Source of the DNA: Myxococcales bacterium UBA1660
GTDB lineage: Bacteria; Myxococcota_A; Polyangia; Polyangiales; Houyiibacteriaceae
Length of the DNA: 64,000 bases
Assembly (NCBI GenBank): GCA_002320815.1
Contig: DCLA01000020.1
Span: forward strand, 3,497 to 67,496
Direction of reading: 5' to 3'
Shown here: piece by piece, positions 55,988 through 62,227 of the stretch
Numbering within the stretch: position 1 is the stretch's first letter
Layout: each line of letters starts with the position of its first letter
Translations under genes and position numbers: made by a program
The notes under the pieces: generated by a model
The model's database searches: none
What the model saw: only the letters and a program-made list of their open reading frames with translations
Told to the model about the DNA's origin: nothing

Positions 55988-57265
55988 ATGAGCCTGCCCA
56001 GCGAAGCCTTCGCCTACGCCGACGGCGTCCTGACTACCAGCGGCGTGGACCTGCGCGCCGTCGCCGAGGCCCACGGGACCCCGACGTGGGTCTACTCCGG
56101 TGAGCGGGTCGACGCCGCGTACCGTTCGATCACCGAAGCCATGGCCCAGGCGAGTGGCGGCAGCGAGACCCTCATCGCCTACGCCATCAAGGCCAACGGC
56201 AACCAGGCGCTCCTGAAGCGCCTGGCGGCCCTCGGCTGCGGCGCGGACATCGTCAGCGGCGGCGAGCTCCTCCGCGCGCTACGCGCGGGGATCCCGGCGG
56301 AGCGCATCGTCTACAGCGGCGTCGGGAAGTCCCGCGCCGAGCTCCGGCTGGCGCTCGAGAAGGGCATCCGCGCCGTCCACGTGGAGAGCGAGAGCGAGCT
56401 CCGGCTCCTGGGAGAGGTCGCCGCGGACCTCGGCACCACCGCGACCATCGCGCTCCGCGTGAACCCCAACGTGGACGCCGAGACCCACCCCTACATCGCC
56501 ACCGGGCTCCACTCGACCAAGTTCGGCCTGGAGCTGGACGTGGCCGAGCGGCTGGTCCCCGAGATCGTGGGCGACGACCGCTTCCACCTCGACGGCGTGA
56601 GCTGCCACATCGGGTCCCAGCTCGGGTCCGTCGACCCGCTGCGCGAAGCGGTCACCCTCCTGGCCCAGTTCGCGCTCCAGTGCCGCGAGCTCGGCGCGCC
56701 CATCCGCTCCCTCGACGTGGGCGGCGGTTGGCCCCTCACCTACGGCAACGAGAAGGCCCCCTACCCCGCCGACGCCGCCTTCGGCGCCGCCATCGCCGAA
56801 GGCCTCGAGGCCGCCGGCGCCCGCGACTTCGACCTCATCACCGAGCCCGGCCGGGCGCTCGTCGGCGACGCGGGCGCGCTGCTGACCTCGGTGCTCGCGA
56901 TCAAGGACCAGGGCGGCAAGCGCTTCGTGATCCTCGACGGCGCGATGACCGAGCTCATCCGCCCCAGCCTCTACCAGGCGTACCACGCCATCGTGCCCGT
57001 CGTGGCCCCCGAGGGCCCCACCCGGGAGACCGACCTGGTGGGCCCGGTCTGCGAGTCCGGCGACTTCTTCGCGCGCAGCCGCCCCTTCCCCGAGGTCCGC
57101 GAGGGCGACCTGGTCGCCGTGCTCGGCGCCGGCGCCTACGGCCGGGAGATGGCCAGCTCCTACAACGCGCGCCCCCGCGCCGCCGAGGTCCTCTGCGAGG
57201 CCGGGAGCGCCTCCCTCGTGCGCCGCCGGGGTGACGTCGAGAGCCTCTGGGCCGGCGAGGACTGA
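55988..57265 (+). CDS. lysA: Diaminopimelate decarboxylase
   Basis: YAIKAN, DIVSGGEL, YSGVGK, SKFG, HIGSQL, EPGR, GPVCESGD, GAYG..YN. Confidence 0.96.
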   Translation: MSLPSEAFAYADGVLTTSGVDLRAVAEAHGTPTWVYSGERVDAAYRSITEAMAQASGGSETLIAYAIKANGNQALLKRLAALGCGADIVSGGELLRALRAGIPAERIVYSGVGKSRAELRLALEKGIRAVHVESESELRLLGEVAADLGTTATIALRVNPNVDAETHPYIATGLHSTKFGLELDVAERLVPEIVGDDRFHLDGVSCHIGSQLGSVDPLREAVTLLAQFALQCRELGAPIRSLDVGGGWPLTYGNEKAPYPADAAFGAAIAEGLEAAGARDFDLITEPGRALVGDAGALLTSVLAIKDQGGKRFVILDGAMTELIRPSLYQAYHAIVPVVAPEGPTRETDLVGPVCESGDFFARSRPFPEVREGDLVAVLGAGAYGREMASSYNARPRAAEVLCEAGSASLVRRRGDVESLWAGED

Positions 57266-57394
57266 CCCCCGCGGTCGCGGTGGTCTTCGCCTGGTACGAA
57301 GCCGTCCAGACCGACCACGAGCGCCAGATCGAGCGCCAGCTGCCGAAGCTTCGCGAGCGCAGCGTCCGGTTCTTCGAGCCTGCCCTGGAGCCGC

Positions 57395-58207
57395 TCACTC
57401 CAGGATGAAGCACTCGATCGAGGTCTCGATCCGGAAGTTGCTCTCGTTCGTGTGGCGTTCGGCGTGGAAGACGTCGAGGGAGTAGCGGGTGCCCACCTCG
57501 ATGCCGAGCTCGGCCGCCTGGGCGTCGAAGTCGATGGTCCCGGCGAGCGCGCCGTGGAGGCCACCGAGGTCCAGGGCCAGGCGGTCGTTCACGAAGACCC
57601 ACACGTCGTCGTCGCCGCGGAAGGTGAAGACCTCGCCCCCGCGGTACTGGAAGGTGGCGTGGATCTCGGTGGTGAAGTGGAAGTTGTGCGGGTTGCCCTC
57701 GTTGCCGAAGCCCATGTCGGCCAGCGGGAAGAACGCACTGTTGTCATAGACGTAGTTCCCGGGCGACTCCTCGGTGAGCGCCAGGCCGACGGTGAAGGGC
57801 ATGTTCACGCCGTCGACGTCCCGGTACCACTGGTCGAAGTTGTCCGGGCCGGTGGTCTGGCTGGTCGGACCCGCCGCGGCGTGGACGGGCTTGCCGTCGG
57901 CGCCGAGCATGGACTCCACCAGCCCGGTGGTCGCCCCGGAGCCGCCGAACGACTCGAAGTCCGGGTGAGCGGCGTGGAAGTCGCGCACGGTGGCTTCGAG
58001 GTCACCACAGCGCTCCGGGTCGCCGAAGTCCCGGGGCGGACCGAAGTCGGTGGGTCCACTCGCGTCGCGACCGACCCCCGCGTCGTCGCCGCCTCCCGCG
58101 TCCACGCCGCCGCCGCCATCGCGGGCCAAGGTGTCCGAGCCGAGGGTCTCCCCGCAGTCGCAGGCGACGGTCAGCGAGAGAGCGAGGAAGACGACCGGGG
58201 TCCGCAT
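57395..58207 (-). CDS. Fibro-slime (PA14-like) domain lipoprotein
   Basis: VRDF..HPDFE, FDQWYRD, HNFHFTTE, FRGDDDVWVFVN, LDLGGLH, FHAERH..SNFRIET. Confidence 0.88.
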   Translation of the reverse strand: MRTPVVFLALSLTVACDCGETLGSDTLARDGGGGVDAGGGDDAGVGRDASGPTDFGPPRDFGDPERCGDLEATVRDFHAAHPDFESFGGSGATTGLVESMLGADGKPVHAAAGPTSQTTGPDNFDQWYRDVDGVNMPFTVGLALTEESPGNYVYDNSAFFPLADMGFGNEGNPHNFHFTTEIHATFQYRGGEVFTFRGDDDVWVFVNDRLALDLGGLHGALAGTIDFDAQAAELGIEVGTRYSLDVFHAERHTNESNFRIETSIECFILE

Positions 58208-58253
58208 CCCGAAAGCTTCGGCGCTGCCCCCAGCGACCGCAAGGCACACCGTT

Positions 58254-58293
58254 GGCGCGGTGAGTTTCCGGCAACGCCGAAACCCACCGCGCC
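58254..58293. terminator. Imperfect 40-nt hairpin between the dynamin stop and the fibro-slime start
   Basis: ggcgcggtg-a-gtttc-c-ggc / aac / gcc-gaaac-c-caccgcgcc; no clear U tract. Confidence 0.4.
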
Positions 58294-58304
58294 TCTCCGG
58301 TGCG

Positions 58305-60080
58305 TCAGTGCACGGCGTCGGAGGTGGCGCCGCTGGCCCAGAGCCCGGTGCGCATGCCCTGCATGCGGGTCTCGACCTCTTCGAGACGCGCGAGGGTCAT
58401 GCCCACGTCGCCGGCCAGCTTGGTCTGCGCCGCGGCGCCCGAGCTCTTGGCCTCCCGGGCGGTGCGCACCAGCTCGGCGATGGACCGGCTCATCTCCTCG
58501 TTCGCGCGGGTGACGAAGTCGATCAGGCGCTCGCCGAACTCGTCGATGCGCTCGTCGAAGGCGTCCGCCATCTTCTTGGCGGCGTCGATGACCACCTTCG
58601 GGGCCTCTTCCTTCGCGCGCTCCTTGACCTGCTTGTCGGCGCGGCCCCGGAAGACCAGCGCGAGCACCGGCGCCGCGAGGGCCAGCGCGCCGCCGACCAG
58701 CACGTTGGAGAGCACCATCAGGGTCACGCCGAAGGCGCCGACGGCGAAGACGCCCACGTCGTAGGCGAAGGTGTTCACGTCGAGGTCGAGCTCGGTGGAG
58801 TCGTCCCCCAGCACCGCGCGCAGATGCTCCGCCCGGGCCGAGGCGTCTTCGGTCACGAAGGCGATGGCCTCTTCGGCCACCTTCTCCAGGCGCGTCGCGA
58901 TGGCCTCGGCCTGCTCCTCGGCGAGGTTCTTGAACTTCTCCTCGATGAAGCCGCCGAGGTGCTTCCGCAGATCCTTGGCGTCGCTCTGCTCGATCTCCCC
59001 GGGGAGCTGGTCGGCGAAGCGACGGGCGAAGCCCTCGACGTCGGCGCGGACCACCGCCTTGACCGCGCTGACCGACTCGCGGATGCGCGCCTTGCGCTCG
59101 CTCATCCGCTCGGCGCTCTGCTCGAGGTCTTCCTCGAGGGTCTTCAGGCGCCGCTCCAGCTCGGCCTGGTCCATCGCCAGGGCCCGCTTCTGGACCTCGA
59201 TACCGGTCTTGAGCGTCGCCGCGGTGCGGATGCCGTCCCCGAGCGCGTTGTCGAGGAGGACTCGGCCGCGCTCGTCGCGCAGGAAGGTGCGCAGATGCTC
59301 GACCAGCTCGTCCATGCCGGAGGTGCTCCGGTCGCCCTCGAGGGCCTGCTCGGCGCTCACGCCGAAGACGATGGGGTCGGCCATCAGCTTGCCCAGGTTG
59401 AGCCGGGCGTAGGCCAGGGCCTCCTCGCGCTCCTCGTCGTCGAGGATGTCCATCTTGTTCACGACGAAGACGACCTTGTCGCGCGACTGGGCGAGGAGCT
59501 TGCTGGCCACGAAGGCCCGCTCGGACTCCTTGAGGATCTGTCCGGCGTCCAGGAGGAACAGGATGGCGTCCGAGCGCGGGATGTAGCCGTAGGTGATCTC
59601 GGCCCGCGCCTCGTTGATGTCGTTCACGCCCGGCGTGTCCACCAGGACCACGCCCTCCTCGAGGAAGGGCGCGGGGTACTTCACGTCCAGGTGCTTCACC
59701 GCGTCGGCCTGGGCCGCTCCGCCGACCTCGTACTGCTCGAGCTCGCCGATGGCGACGTCCTTCTCCCCCGCGTCGCCGACCGCCTTGGCGGTCTGGGTCT
59801 CGCCGTGGGCCACGTGGTGGATCACCGCGGTGGTCGGCGTGACGCCCATGGGCAGGAGCGGCGCGCCGAGGAGCGCGTTCACGAAGGTCGTCTTGCCGTG
59901 GTTGAACTCCCCGAGGACCACCAGGTGGAAGCGCTCGTCGCGCAGCCGCGGGATCCGGTCGTCGCGCAGCTTGCGCGCCAGGGACTTGGCTCCGGCCTCG
60001 TCGGCCAGCGCCGCCACGTCCCGGAGGCTCCGTAGCGCCTGCTGCTTCAGCTCGCCGTAGCGGCTCGTCGTCTCGCTCAT
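58305..60080 (-). CDS. Bacterial dynamin-like GTPase (BDLP / mitofusin-like)
   Basis: G1 GEFNHGKTT, G2 PTT, G3 DTPG, G4 NKMD; coiled-coil stalk; hydrophobic paddle VGVFAVGAFGVTLMVLSNVLVGGALALAAPVLALVF. Confidence 0.92.
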   Translation of the reverse strand: MSETTSRYGELKQQALRSLRDVAALADEAGAKSLARKLRDDRIPRLRDERFHLVVLGEFNHGKTTFVNALLGAPLLPMGVTPTTAVIHHVAHGETQTAKAVGDAGEKDVAIGELEQYEVGGAAQADAVKHLDVKYPAPFLEEGVVLVDTPGVNDINEARAEITYGYIPRSDAILFLLDAGQILKESERAFVASKLLAQSRDKVVFVVNKMDILDDEEREEALAYARLNLGKLMADPIVFGVSAEQALEGDRSTSGMDELVEHLRTFLRDERGRVLLDNALGDGIRTAATLKTGIEVQKRALAMDQAELERRLKTLEEDLEQSAERMSERKARIRESVSAVKAVVRADVEGFARRFADQLPGEIEQSDAKDLRKHLGGFIEEKFKNLAEEQAEAIATRLEKVAEEAIAFVTEDASARAEHLRAVLGDDSTELDLDVNTFAYDVGVFAVGAFGVTLMVLSNVLVGGALALAAPVLALVFRGRADKQVKERAKEEAPKVVIDAAKKMADAFDERIDEFGERLIDFVTRANEEMSRSIAELVRTAREAKSSGAAAQTKLAGDVGMTLARLEEVETRMQGMRTGLWASGATSDAVH

Positions 60081-61012
60081 TCGCTTCCCTTCTCGGTGTC
60101 GTCGGCGACGGGGAGCTCCCCCGGCATCTCGCCCTTGGCGTTGATCTTTACGATGTCGGTGGTCCGCTCGTCGACCGTCTTCAGGTCCAGCCCGTCCTGC
60201 CCGAGGCCGACGGCCTTGCGGTAGTAGGCGCTCTCCCCGAAGACCCGCAGCGCGGCGATGCGCTTGGGTAGCGCGGGGTGCGAGTCGAAGATCTCGGTGA
60301 AGCGCCCGACGCCCTTCCGGGCCTCCTCGAGCTGGTCCATATAGGCCTCGACGTCGATGGCGTCGTAGTGCTTGGTGGAACCGGAGGCCATCTTCACGAA
60401 GGTCCGCTCGGCGACCCCGATGTCCCCGCAGCAGAGCGCGCCGGCGCGGTCGCAGGTGATCTCCGCGCGGCGGGACCAGGTGCGCAACGCGGCCTGCACC
60501 ACCGGCTGCAGGGGTCGCAGGATCGCCGGGAGCTGCGAGAGGAGGAGCATGGTGGTCAGGTAGACCACGTGGCCGTTCTGGATGTGGCCCATCTCGTGGC
60601 CGATGACGAAGCGCAGCTCGTCTTCGGTGAAGTGATCCACCAGCTTCGAGTGGACCACGATGAACGAGTCCTCCTGGGTCCCGAAGGTGAAGGCGTTCAT
60701 CACCGGGCTGTTGGAGATGTAGAGGGCCGGCATCGCGATGCCCAGGACGTCGGCGCATTCCTTGGCCAGGGCGTGGACCTGGGGGAGCTGGCGCGGACCG
60801 ACCTTGAGAGAGTTGGCGATGAAGCGATGCTGGAAGAGGTGCTTCTGGCCGCGGACCAACGAGGCCACCACCAGCTTCAGCGGACGGAACTTGTCGAACC
60901 CGCGGAGCATGGTGAGGTCCGGACCGAAGGCGTAGCGGGTCTCCTCGGCCATGCCGCCGAGGGCTCCGCTCTCGCGCTTGCTGACGTATGCGTCGAAGCT
61001 GAATTCGCTCAC
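60077..61012 (-). CDS. M48 (HtpX/Ste24/OMA1-like) zinc metallopeptidase
   Basis: NAFTFG, ELRFVIGHEMGH, WSRRAEITCDRAG, SHP..RI; ATGA overlap with the dynamin start. Confidence 0.9.
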   Translation of the reverse strand: MSEFSFDAYVSKRESGALGGMAEETRYAFGPDLTMLRGFDKFRPLKLVVASLVRGQKHLFQHRFIANSLKVGPRQLPQVHALAKECADVLGIAMPALYISNSPVMNAFTFGTQEDSFIVVHSKLVDHFTEDELRFVIGHEMGHIQNGHVVYLTTMLLLSQLPAILRPLQPVVQAALRTWSRRAEITCDRAGALCCGDIGVAERTFVKMASGSTKHYDAIDVEAYMDQLEEARKGVGRFTEIFDSHPALPKRIAALRVFGESAYYRKAVGLGQDGLDLKTVDERTTDIVKINAKGEMPGELPVADDTEKGSE

Positions 61013-61174
61013 TGGACCTCCATGCCCCCGGCTCGGGAGCCACGCGAGAACAGTAGGCCTGGGGCTCGGGCGTGACAACGGTGCACGCGAACCCAACGGC
61101 TCGGCGCCCCCCGCGATTCCACCGACCGCCGCGGAGGATGACTATGTCGTCACGTTCTGGTAGGCGGGCAGGCC

Positions 61175-62227
61175 ATGGGCATCACGATCCTCGGCACCGG
61201 CCACCACGTCCCCGGCGTCCCCGTCACCAACGACCAGCTCTCCGCGGTGATGGAGACCAGCGACGAGTGGATCTACCCGCGCACCGGCATCAAGCAGCGC
61301 CACTTCGTCGCCGAGGGCGAAGGGGTGAGCGATCTGGCCCTCAAGGCCAGCCAGCGGGCGCTGGCCAACGCGGGCGTCGACGCCGAAGAGGTCGACTTCA
61401 TCGTCTTCGCCACCATGACCCCGGAGTTCATCTTCCCGGGGGCCGGCGGGCTCCTGGGCGCCAAGCTGGGCATCCCGCGCGTGCCCGCGCTGGACATCCG
61501 CCAGCAGTGCGCGGCGATGCCCTTCGGGATGCAGGTCGCCAACGGCCTGGTGGCCACCGGCGCGGCCAAGACGATCCTCCTGGTGGGAGCCGACGCCCAC
61601 GCCGGCTTCATGCCCTGGGAGGACTGGGACGTGCTCTACGGCGAGAGCGACCGCCCGGTGAGCCAGGAGGCCATGGAGCGCGGCACCCGGCATCGGGGCC
61701 TGGCGGTGCTCTTCGGCGACGGCGCGGCGGCCATGGTGCTCCGCGAGGGCGGCGAGGACCGGGGGTTCCTGGGCGCCGATCTCCACACCGACGGGCGGCT
61801 CTTCGACCGCATCTACATCGCCTCGGGCGGCTTCCGCAGCCGCCCCTACTTCACCCCGGAGATGTACGAGCGGGAGGAGCACATCCCCAAGATGCAGGGC
61901 CGGGACCTCTTCAAGGTGGCGGTCACCGAGCTGAGCCGCTCGGTGCGCACGGTCTGCGAGAAGTGCGCCGTGACCCTCGACGACGTCGACTGGTTCATCG
62001 CTCACCAGGCCAACGACCGCATCAACGGCGCGGTGCGCCAGGCCCTGAAGCTCCCCGAATCCAAGGTCCCCTCCAACATCGCCAAGTACGGGAACACGTC
62101 GGCGGCGACGATCGGGCTCCTCCTCGACGAGCTCCGCCGGGGCGGCGAGGTGAAGGAGGGCCAGCTCATCTGCTTCCTCGCCCTGGGCTCCGGCCTCAAC
62201 TGGGGCTCGGTCTTGATGCGACTCTGA
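61175..62227 (+). CDS. fabH: 3-oxoacyl-ACP synthase III (FabH-like)
   Basis: RTGIKQRH, QQCAA catalytic Cys, LFGDGA, HQAN, YGNTSAA, GSGLNWG. Confidence 0.85.
   Translation: MGITILGTGHHVPGVPVTNDQLSAVMETSDEWIYPRTGIKQRHFVAEGEGVSDLALKASQRALANAGVDAEEVDFIVFATMTPEFIFPGAGGLLGAKLGIPRVPALDIRQQCAAMPFGMQVANGLVATGAAKTILLVGADAHAGFMPWEDWDVLYGESDRPVSQEAMERGTRHRGLAVLFGDGAAAMVLREGGEDRGFLGADLHTDGRLFDRIYIASGGFRSRPYFTPEMYEREEHIPKMQGRDLFKVAVTELSRSVRTVCEKCAVTLDDVDWFIAHQANDRINGAVRQALKLPESKVPSNIAKYGNTSAATIGLLLDELRRGGEVKEGQLICFLALGSGLNWGSVLMRL

Follow-up and report, generated by a model that had tools for sequence, protein, structure and literature searches.

An M48 metallopeptidase and a dynamin-like GTPase encoded and inherited together in Myxococcota and in other bacterial phyla

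Described relatives of the two proteins

Bacterial dynamin-like proteins (DLPs) are well known as structures, whereas their cellular roles and regulation are less clear: DynA, IniA, and BDLP are membrane-binding proteins that remodel membranes under stress, and B. subtilis DynA and the Eleos system are reported to protect against phage. The characterised M48 zinc metallopeptidases HtpX, Ste24, OMA1, and BepA work at membrane surfaces, on proteins of the membrane or envelope, and are themselves usually membrane proteins or envelope-bound; in mitochondria, the membrane-embedded OMA1 cleaves the dynamin OPA1. Here, we describe a locus in which genes of these two kinds adjoin—an M48 peptidase (M48 below) followed by a DLP—within a 64,000-nucleotide stretch of contig DCLA01000020.1 from Myxococcales bacterium UBA1660 (the whole of this stretch is referred to as the window). 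We show that a particular type of DLP and an M48 subfamily dedicated to it are encoded, inherited, lost and, at this locus, transcribed together, and consider it very probable that the two constitute a true functional pair belonging to a widespread module. The original prediction, made from the sequence alone, did not recognise the pairing as characterised, and we likewise found no description of an M48–dynamin pairing in the searchable literature, which leaves out most subscription journals; mentions of HtpX in a paper on E. coli RdcA/RdcB-DgcE turned out to be unrelated. Neither Jilly et al. 2018 nor Pfiffer et al. 2019 describes such a pairing, and the former makes no mention of a peptidase partner of BDLP.

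Both genes lie on the minus strand and are joined by an ATGA overlap, as had been read from the sequence at the outset: the TGA stop of M48 occupies 60077-60079 and the ATG of the DLP 60078-60080. M48 itself starts at a GTG codon, 4 bases past a GGAGG. The coupled genes are an operon, that is, a co-transcribed pair, with the following features.

60077-61012, minus strand: M48 zinc metallopeptidase gene, 311 amino acids, DLP-associated subfamily (translation, Pfam PF01435, fold model, tree)
58305-60080, minus strand: BDLP/mitofusin-class dynamin-like GTPase gene, 591 amino acids (Pfam Dynamin_N, fold model, DLP tree)
60077-60080, minus strand: ATGA overlap of M48 stop and DLP start, translational coupling (sequence)
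61013-61043, minus strand: M48 5' leader with GGAGG ribosome-binding site at 61017-61021 (sequence, RNA contig ends)
60584-60598, minus strand: HEMGH zinc-binding/catalytic motif, M48 residues 139-143 (sequence; subfamily signature GHExGHI[HQ]NxH)
60446-60463, minus strand: EITCDR, M48 residues 184-189, inside the subfamily-defining W..R..E.TCDRAG (alignment A2)
59889-59912, minus strand: G1/P-loop GEFNHGKT, DLP residues 57-64 (G57, G62, and K63 invariant in alignment A3)
59628-59639, minus strand: G3 DTPG, DLP residues 148-151 (D148, T149, P150, and G151 invariant in A3)
59448-59459, minus strand: G4 NKMD, DLP residues 208-211 (D211 invariant in A3)
58641-58772, minus strand: hydrophobic hairpin or paddle, DLP residues 437-480, 44 residues (Kyte-Doolittle 19-residue means up to 2.2)

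The peptidase belongs to family M48 both by profile (Pfam Peptidase_M48, PF01435: 108.1 bits, E 6.2e-31, with the cut-off at 20.3 bits and 2-183 of the 186 profile positions aligned) and by possession of HExxH with a downstream Glu. Pfam, translation, and hydrophobicity bear out the early description of a gene with HEMGH, E..DR, and SHP motifs (the last at residues 244-246) and no signal peptide. Across the 41 sequences of alignment A2, H139, E140, and H143 are invariant or nearly so, as are N146, H148, and E184, the last being, from its position, the presumed third zinc ligand; W179, R181, E184, T186, D188, R189, and A190 are invariant. Conservation extends to non-catalytic positions near the N-terminus (F6, Y27, D32) and C-terminus (D281), and the C-terminal half has signatures of its own, W..R..E.TCDRAG and HP.LPKR. 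An AlphaFold2 model (pLDDT 87, pTM 0.86) has the M48 catalytic fold, with Foldseek matches to ZMPSTE24/Ste24, HtpX, the Geobacter M48 3c37, BlaR1, and BepA at probability >=0.99 for ranks 1-14. Among named proteins, HtpX (M48B) comes closest: its Vibrio domain (3CQB, E 2.5e-9) is the only PDB sequence match, NCBIfam HtpX models are the best partial matches (residues 84-155, including the HExxH region), and E. coli HtpX probably has a similar local motif after the second His. M48 is nevertheless no HtpX equivalog, as all scores fall far short of what those models require (at best 65.3 bits where 245 are needed). It also lacks the HtpX transmembrane helices: hydrophobicity peaks at a Kyte-Doolittle 19-residue mean of 1.43, too low for a predicted membrane-spanning helix, and the N-terminus has no hydrophobic segment.

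The DLP matches Pfam Dynamin_N at 103.9 bits (cut-off 27, E 1e-29), and the claim that its G1-G4 motifs are intact stands on both the sequence and family alignment A3, in which the switch-I residues P82 and T84 are also invariant. The hydrophobic paddle that was predicted for the C-terminus is present, but at residues 437-480 of 591 it falls in the last quarter of the protein instead; this hairpin is the presumed membrane anchor. D441, which lies at the hydrophobic region before a model helix at 442-474, is invariant in A3. The AlphaFold2 model (pLDDT 74) shows a GTPase domain and long paired helices with a hydrophobic tip of low confidence—long stalk helices at 256-424 and 481-582 flank the hydrophobic stretch, which includes the low-confidence 442-474 helix, an arrangement like that of the BDLP paddle. 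By Foldseek, BDLP ranks first (E 1e-20), followed by IniA, Campylobacter DLP1/DLP2, SynDLP, and Fzo1/mitofusins, and PDB sequence matches are to BDLP (2j68), Cj-DLP1/2, and IniA. With Dynamin_N bearing the G motifs and, in the model, a helical neck/trunk with a predicted membrane-binding paddle, the protein is of the BDLP class; the tandem DLP pair typical of that class is missing from the window but occurs in sister orders and other phyla.

How closely does this locus resemble described systems? Nostoc punctiforme BDLP (2J68/2J69/2W6D) is the best match to the DLP in both fold and PDB sequence (E 8e-20 over the GTPase domain) and has the same layout of GTPase, helical neck/trunk, and hydrophobic paddle, though identity is only 18-19%. 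Campylobacter jejuni DLP1/DLP2 (5OWV/5OXF) and B. subtilis DynA belong to the same class and bring two DLPs together in one operon or fused gene, comparable to the M48-DLP1-TPR-DLP2 and DLP-M48-DLP arrangements reported below; in the window, by contrast, the operon partner is a peptidase, and the second DLP, with its arm of about 450 amino acids of TPR, is unlinked. The C. jejuni DLP and DynA systems are not known to include an M48. Mycobacterial IniA (6J72/6J73) is, like the window protein, a single BDLP-type protein of similar length (fold match E 3.5e-17), and is tied to membrane stress; its iniBAC operon lacks a protease, and its sequence similarity to the DLP is 18%. The proposal that the locus is an OMA1-OPA1-type module fares less well. 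The likeness consists in an M48-family zinc protease functionally paired with a dynamin-superfamily membrane GTPase. The DLP is of the BDLP/mitofusin class, S-OPA1 (8ct1) ranks only 50th among its fold matches (E 3.6e-8), behind BDLP, IniA, the Cj-DLPs, SynDLP, Fzo1/MFN, LeoA, EHD, and Drp1/dynamin, and OPA1 does not occur among its PDB sequence matches. OMA1 is membrane-embedded, whereas the window M48, without a predicted transmembrane segment, has HtpX models as its nearest named relatives. The resemblance would therefore be an analogy at best.

Conservation of the pairing across Myxococcota and other phyla

The original prediction called for a survey of M48–DLP adjacency, and in three separately drawn sets of loci the adjacency is conserved. 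A first set of 80 loci (L001-L080) was retrieved via the DLP alone and covers Sandaracinaceae, Polyangiaceae (including at least ten complete Sorangium genomes), and other Polyangia. Of the 77 loci having upstream DNA, all but one (L011) carry M48 as the gene immediately before the DLP, in the same orientation, which makes 76 of 77. No other neighbour from the window is kept throughout this set, fabH being retained only in Sandaracinaceae. With rough start assignment, the M48 stop is overlapped by 4 nucleotides by a DLP-frame start codon in 33 of the 76 orthologous loci, and nearly all of the others have a spacing of <=120 nucleotides. The second set consists of 301 evenly sampled Myxococcota genomes, 62 of which carry a full-length DLP orthologue; in 60 of these 62, M48 is found <=2.1 kilobases (kb) upstream on the same strand, and in one of the exceptions (G037) the genes are on different contigs. 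Conversely, every genome of this sample with a strong M48 orthologue (E<1e-60; 53/53) also carries the DLP orthologue, and the two genes are jointly absent from 16 small-genome members of the window's own family. The third set, drawn from outside Myxococcota, shows linkage in 42 of 43 loci. In all three sets, the adjacency greatly exceeds what chance would give.

Spacing is looser in one family, that of the Bradymonadales-like genome G276, where the genes are separated by 0.4-2 kb and, in locus L083, by an opposite-strand gene of 346 amino acids (L083:4119-5159, plus strand). Another arrangement occurs in family f37 (L089:2411-7468), in which an M48 with a C-terminal zinc ribbon is followed by a 572-amino-acid protein, itself with an N-terminal zinc ribbon and otherwise no Pfam match, and then by the DLP.

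The peptidases that accompany DLPs form a subfamily of their own. A tree of 88 M48s from searches with the motif W..R..E.TCDRAG separates a 75-row side, of which 67 members adjoin a DLP, 7 are cut by contig ends, and 1 is unlinked, from a 13-row side with no DLP-linked member, and the window M48 falls within a 15-row set with 98% support whose members are all DLP-linked. The two sides differ in signature, GHE[CTM]GHI[HQ]NxH on the linked side and HELGHxK on the unlinked one. We treat the linked side as the DLP-associated M48 subfamily, an operational clade defined in the present analysis; the window M48 belongs to it by tree position, by carrying both subfamily signatures, and by having a DLP directly downstream.

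For the third set, a DNA-pattern scan for W..R..E.TCDRAG, which found the motif in several phyla, was followed by profile searches (an AT-codon-restricted DNA pattern for HECGHIHN was too narrow, yielding 2 matches); the 43 loci come from profile-based retrieval centred on the non-myxobacterial M48 branch. By record labels, some of which are doubtful for metagenome bins, they represent six further phyla: Bacillota (Enterocloster lavalensis, Lachnoclostridium sp. An131, Pseudoflavonifractor phocaeensis), Cyanobacteriota (Nostoc, Aetokthonos, Vasconcelosia), Acidobacteriota (Pyrinomonadaceae), Chloroflexota (Roseiflexus), Pseudomonadota, and Fibrobacterota, with Accumulibacter and Fibrimonadales also among the carriers. 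In 42 of the 43, the order is DLP-(DLP)-M48-DLP; the clusters hold two to four dynamin genes, and the M48 inside them is a sister form belonging to the clade of the window M48. Two candidate observations from these searches were set aside: M48 and DLP profile matches in one stop-free frame of L287 (5980-10284), because this long-read contig also holds a frame-shifted DLP piece and the apparent fusion may be an assembly error, and the M48-linked cyanobacterial DLPs as orthologues of the crystallised Nostoc BDLP1, because they match at 65-72 bits over the GTPase domain only.

A 99% split in the DLP tree places the window DLP together with its myxobacterial orthologues, TPR-fused DLPs, and all the DLPs directly downstream of M48 in other phyla; on the other side are DLPs upstream of, or further downstream from, M48. 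The conserved core is thus an M48 gene followed by a DLP of the window's type. In the multi-DLP clusters (L211-L252), the DLP directly upstream of M48 (about 700 amino acids) always has a strong hydrophobic paddle, whereas the one directly downstream has a strong hydrophobic segment in 26% only; an anchored and a soluble dynamin may thus share the work on either side of the peptidase. Where myxobacteria have just the two genes, it is the downstream-type DLP that bears its own hairpin. The window pair is this pared-down two-gene myxobacterial form of an old module.

That no second dynamin gene is adjacent, as first noted, is true of the window but misleading. The genome has one other Dynamin_N gene, located on a different contig (G000:C125:20052-22841; L081:6053-8845) between an lptB-like ABC ATPase gene and rpoN/ptsN, which encodes a protein of 930 amino acids in which the TPR arm is fused to a DLP. 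When the TPR-DLP2 protein was searched on a class-level sample of genomes, it was found directly behind the pair in other Polyangia orders, as an M48-DLP1-TPR-DLP2 operon that is tight in G245 (L087), G135, G150, and G090 and looser, with about 1 kb of spacing, in G115 and G290. The TPR-fused second DLP is likely a third partner in the genome studied here.

Active site and expression of the pair

HExGH is intact in all 76 Polyangia M48 orthologues, which were chosen via the DLP irrespective of motif, and on the strength of this conservation M48 catalysis is under selection in the window's lineage. We limited the census to L001-L080, since retrieval of L211-L289 included GHECGHI patterns and is biased in this respect. 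Other lineages differ: HExxH is destroyed in both examined f32 genomes (RLAGH and QQLGH in L085 and L086) and replaced by NELGH in one f8 genome (L087). In the f32 variant (L085:4209-8794, L086:3390-8220), the M48 pseudo-peptidase is followed by a gene of about 460 amino acids without a Pfam match and then by a DLP carrying the bacterial dynamin helical domain. As read from these motifs, the partnership outlasts catalysis in some lineages, but in the window's lineage catalysis is clearly maintained, and the retention of an M48 fold beside the DLP despite loss of the active site argues for a physical partnership.

Four marine metatranscriptome runs hold contigs identical to the operon, several of which span the ATGA junction; one, of 1417 nucleotides, covers 59589-61001. 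Coverage by RNA-run contigs stops at 61001-61043, about 0-30 nucleotides upstream of the GTG, and none of these contigs extends over 61158-61311, where the divergent fabH begins, or over the lysA end, the sampled parts of neighbouring genes having little or no coverage. The contigs support the M48 start codon, co-transcription, and expression in nature. At 58866-58924 of the window, all four runs also hold a longer foreign contig (670-1193 nucleotides) matching only 21 + 18 nucleotides of the window, with 28 other letters between; this patch is probably conserved or low-complexity and common with a gene of another organism.

Proposed role, alternatives, and neighbouring genes

It is reasonable to think that protease and dynamin are functionally linked, and because the genes are encoded, inherited, and lost together and M48 enzymes and DLPs have established roles at membranes, we infer that M48 and DLP act as a complex. 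The role that we favour, with moderate confidence, is a protease–dynamin partnership for surveillance, recruitment, and quality control at the cytoplasmic membrane. The DLP hairpin would insert in the cytoplasmic membrane, and GTP-dependent assembly would take place where that membrane is stressed or curved; the peptidase, made in step with the DLP through the ATGA coupling, would ride on it and so gain, as an anchor-less protease, access to the membrane surface. There it might cut damaged or exposed segments of membrane proteins, in an HtpX-like form of quality control, and possibly the DLP too. The DLP would thus supply membrane targeting and perhaps activation, and the peptidase would supply proteolysis at DLP-marked sites, with the TPR-fused second DLP, encoded elsewhere in the genome, as a likely third partner. 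Such a role would be housekeeping or stress-related surveillance and remodelling of membranes, as opposed to mobile defence. Several observations weigh against this proposal: the hairpin region of the DLP model has low confidence; L011 encodes a DLP with neither an M48 nor a remnant of one in the 5 kb upstream, and G191 carries the DLP without an adjacent M48; the dead-site M48 variants show that proteolysis is dispensable in some lineages; and the metatranscriptome contigs are assemblies in which DNA may be included.

The alternative that survives best, though we regard it as unlikely, is gating of the OMA1-OPA1 kind, in which M48 would cleave the DLP, for example near the hairpin, and so switch it between a membrane-anchored and a soluble or active form under stress. 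Translational coupling, strict co-inheritance, and a strictly conserved catalytic site in this lineage would all fit, as would residues 425-441 of the DLP, a low-confidence linker that leads into the hairpin and contains the invariant D441, and there is the established precedent of OPA1 cleavage by OMA1. Yet the DLP is BDLP/mitofusin-class and not OPA1-class, no cleavage site is identifiable by sequence, the pairing is kept in lineages with a destroyed HExxH, and M48-adjoining DLPs of other phyla often lack a cleavable hydrophobic anchor, only 26% having one. The protease gating envisaged originally cannot apply to the module universally, given partners with NELGH, RLAGH, and QQLGH in place of HExxH. 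Such dead-site partners, together with a DLP that is not OPA1-like, lead us not to favour DLP cleavage as a general rule.

Dead-site partners might instead indicate that M48 is mainly a non-catalytic subunit of a dynamin assembly—an adaptor, assembly factor, or regulator of the nucleotide cycle—whose peptidase activity is secondary. Pseudo-peptidases do still adjoin a DLP, in both f32 loci and in L087 with its NELGH, and the conservation of the non-catalytic F6, Y27, D32, and D281 points the same way. We think this improbable, as HExGH, N146, H148, and E184 are kept in all 76 Polyangia orthologues, which is hard to explain without catalysis.

An anti-phage system had also been suggested, and we found this unsupported. 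In its Eleos-like or abortive-infection form, the DLP would sense or counter phage membrane damage and the protease would be the effector; in its favour are the reported phage protection by DynA and Eleos and partial PADLOC matches of the DLP to LeoA (92.6 bits, E 7e-27) and LeoBC (70.6 bits, E 4e-20). These matches are unpaired, however: the locus has a single DLP gene, whereas Eleos/LeoABC combines LeoA with LeoBC, or with LeoB and LeoC, in one locus, and no LeoBC-type partner is adjacent here. Eleos for its part has no M48 component, and M48 gave no PADLOC match. The context of the pair is chromosomal and syntenic, between fabH and lysA/argH in Sandaracinaceae—a housekeeping setting—and within Myxococcota the branching of the M48 tree agrees with the labelled lineages, in keeping with vertical descent. 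The M48 peptidase matches no phage record, and its nine plasmid matches are all at <=34% identity, the two examined (H1, H3) being without a DLP neighbour. Expression of the pair in natural marine samples likewise speaks against a defence role, to which we give little credence. That the genes are neighbours without any functional coupling is least credible of all, in view of adjacency in 76/77, 60/62, and 42/43 loci or genomes whose labels span seven phyla and whose flanking genes vary, and of the joint presence, joint loss, and dedicated M48 subfamily.

A broader version of the proposed membrane partnership, which we put forward tentatively and think somewhat doubtful, is that DLPs of this clade are obligate protease–dynamin machines, in which the DLP, where membrane is damaged, recruits and perhaps allosterically activates a dedicated anchor-less M48 or is switched by it. 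If true, this would represent an ancient multi-phylum mechanism, functionally analogous to OMA1-OPA1, that has been overlooked in work on BDLP, DynA, and IniA. Bacterial dynamins, from myxobacteria to cyanobacteria and gut clostridia, probably have a hitherto unstudied protease partner, and a co-inherited M48 in hosts labelled as seven phyla offers a testable handle on DLP function. The pairing may explain how an anchor-less protease reaches membrane substrates, and it provides a bacterial system for genetic dissection of protease–dynamin coupling, a theme so far mainly mitochondrial (OMA1-OPA1). The window itself contributes the module in its smallest, two-gene myxobacterial version, a connection to a TPR-fused DLP, and expression in situ. 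Culturable carriers include Sorangium cellulosum So ce56, Labilithrix luteola, Lujinxingia vulgaris, Enterocloster lavalensis, Aetokthonos hydrillicola, and Vasconcelosia minhoensis; the two-gene myxobacterial version, as the simplest, is a good entry point.

Scans for promoter and terminator consensus sequences over 57200-61300 returned nothing, as expected at about 70% G+C. One further gene lies downstream of the DLP in the same direction.

57395-58249, minus strand: PA14/fibro-slime-like gene, co-directional, downstream of the DLP (Pfam PA14 E 5.6e-7)

It begins 55 nucleotides 3' of the DLP gene, its product has a hydrophobic, lipoprotein-like N-terminus, and an RNA contig at 58161-58760 bridges the DLP stop and its start. 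We considered it as a third component of the module and rejected it, since no relatives other than the two nearest, L001 and L002, have kept it; the PA14 gene is probably a local passenger outside the conserved module.

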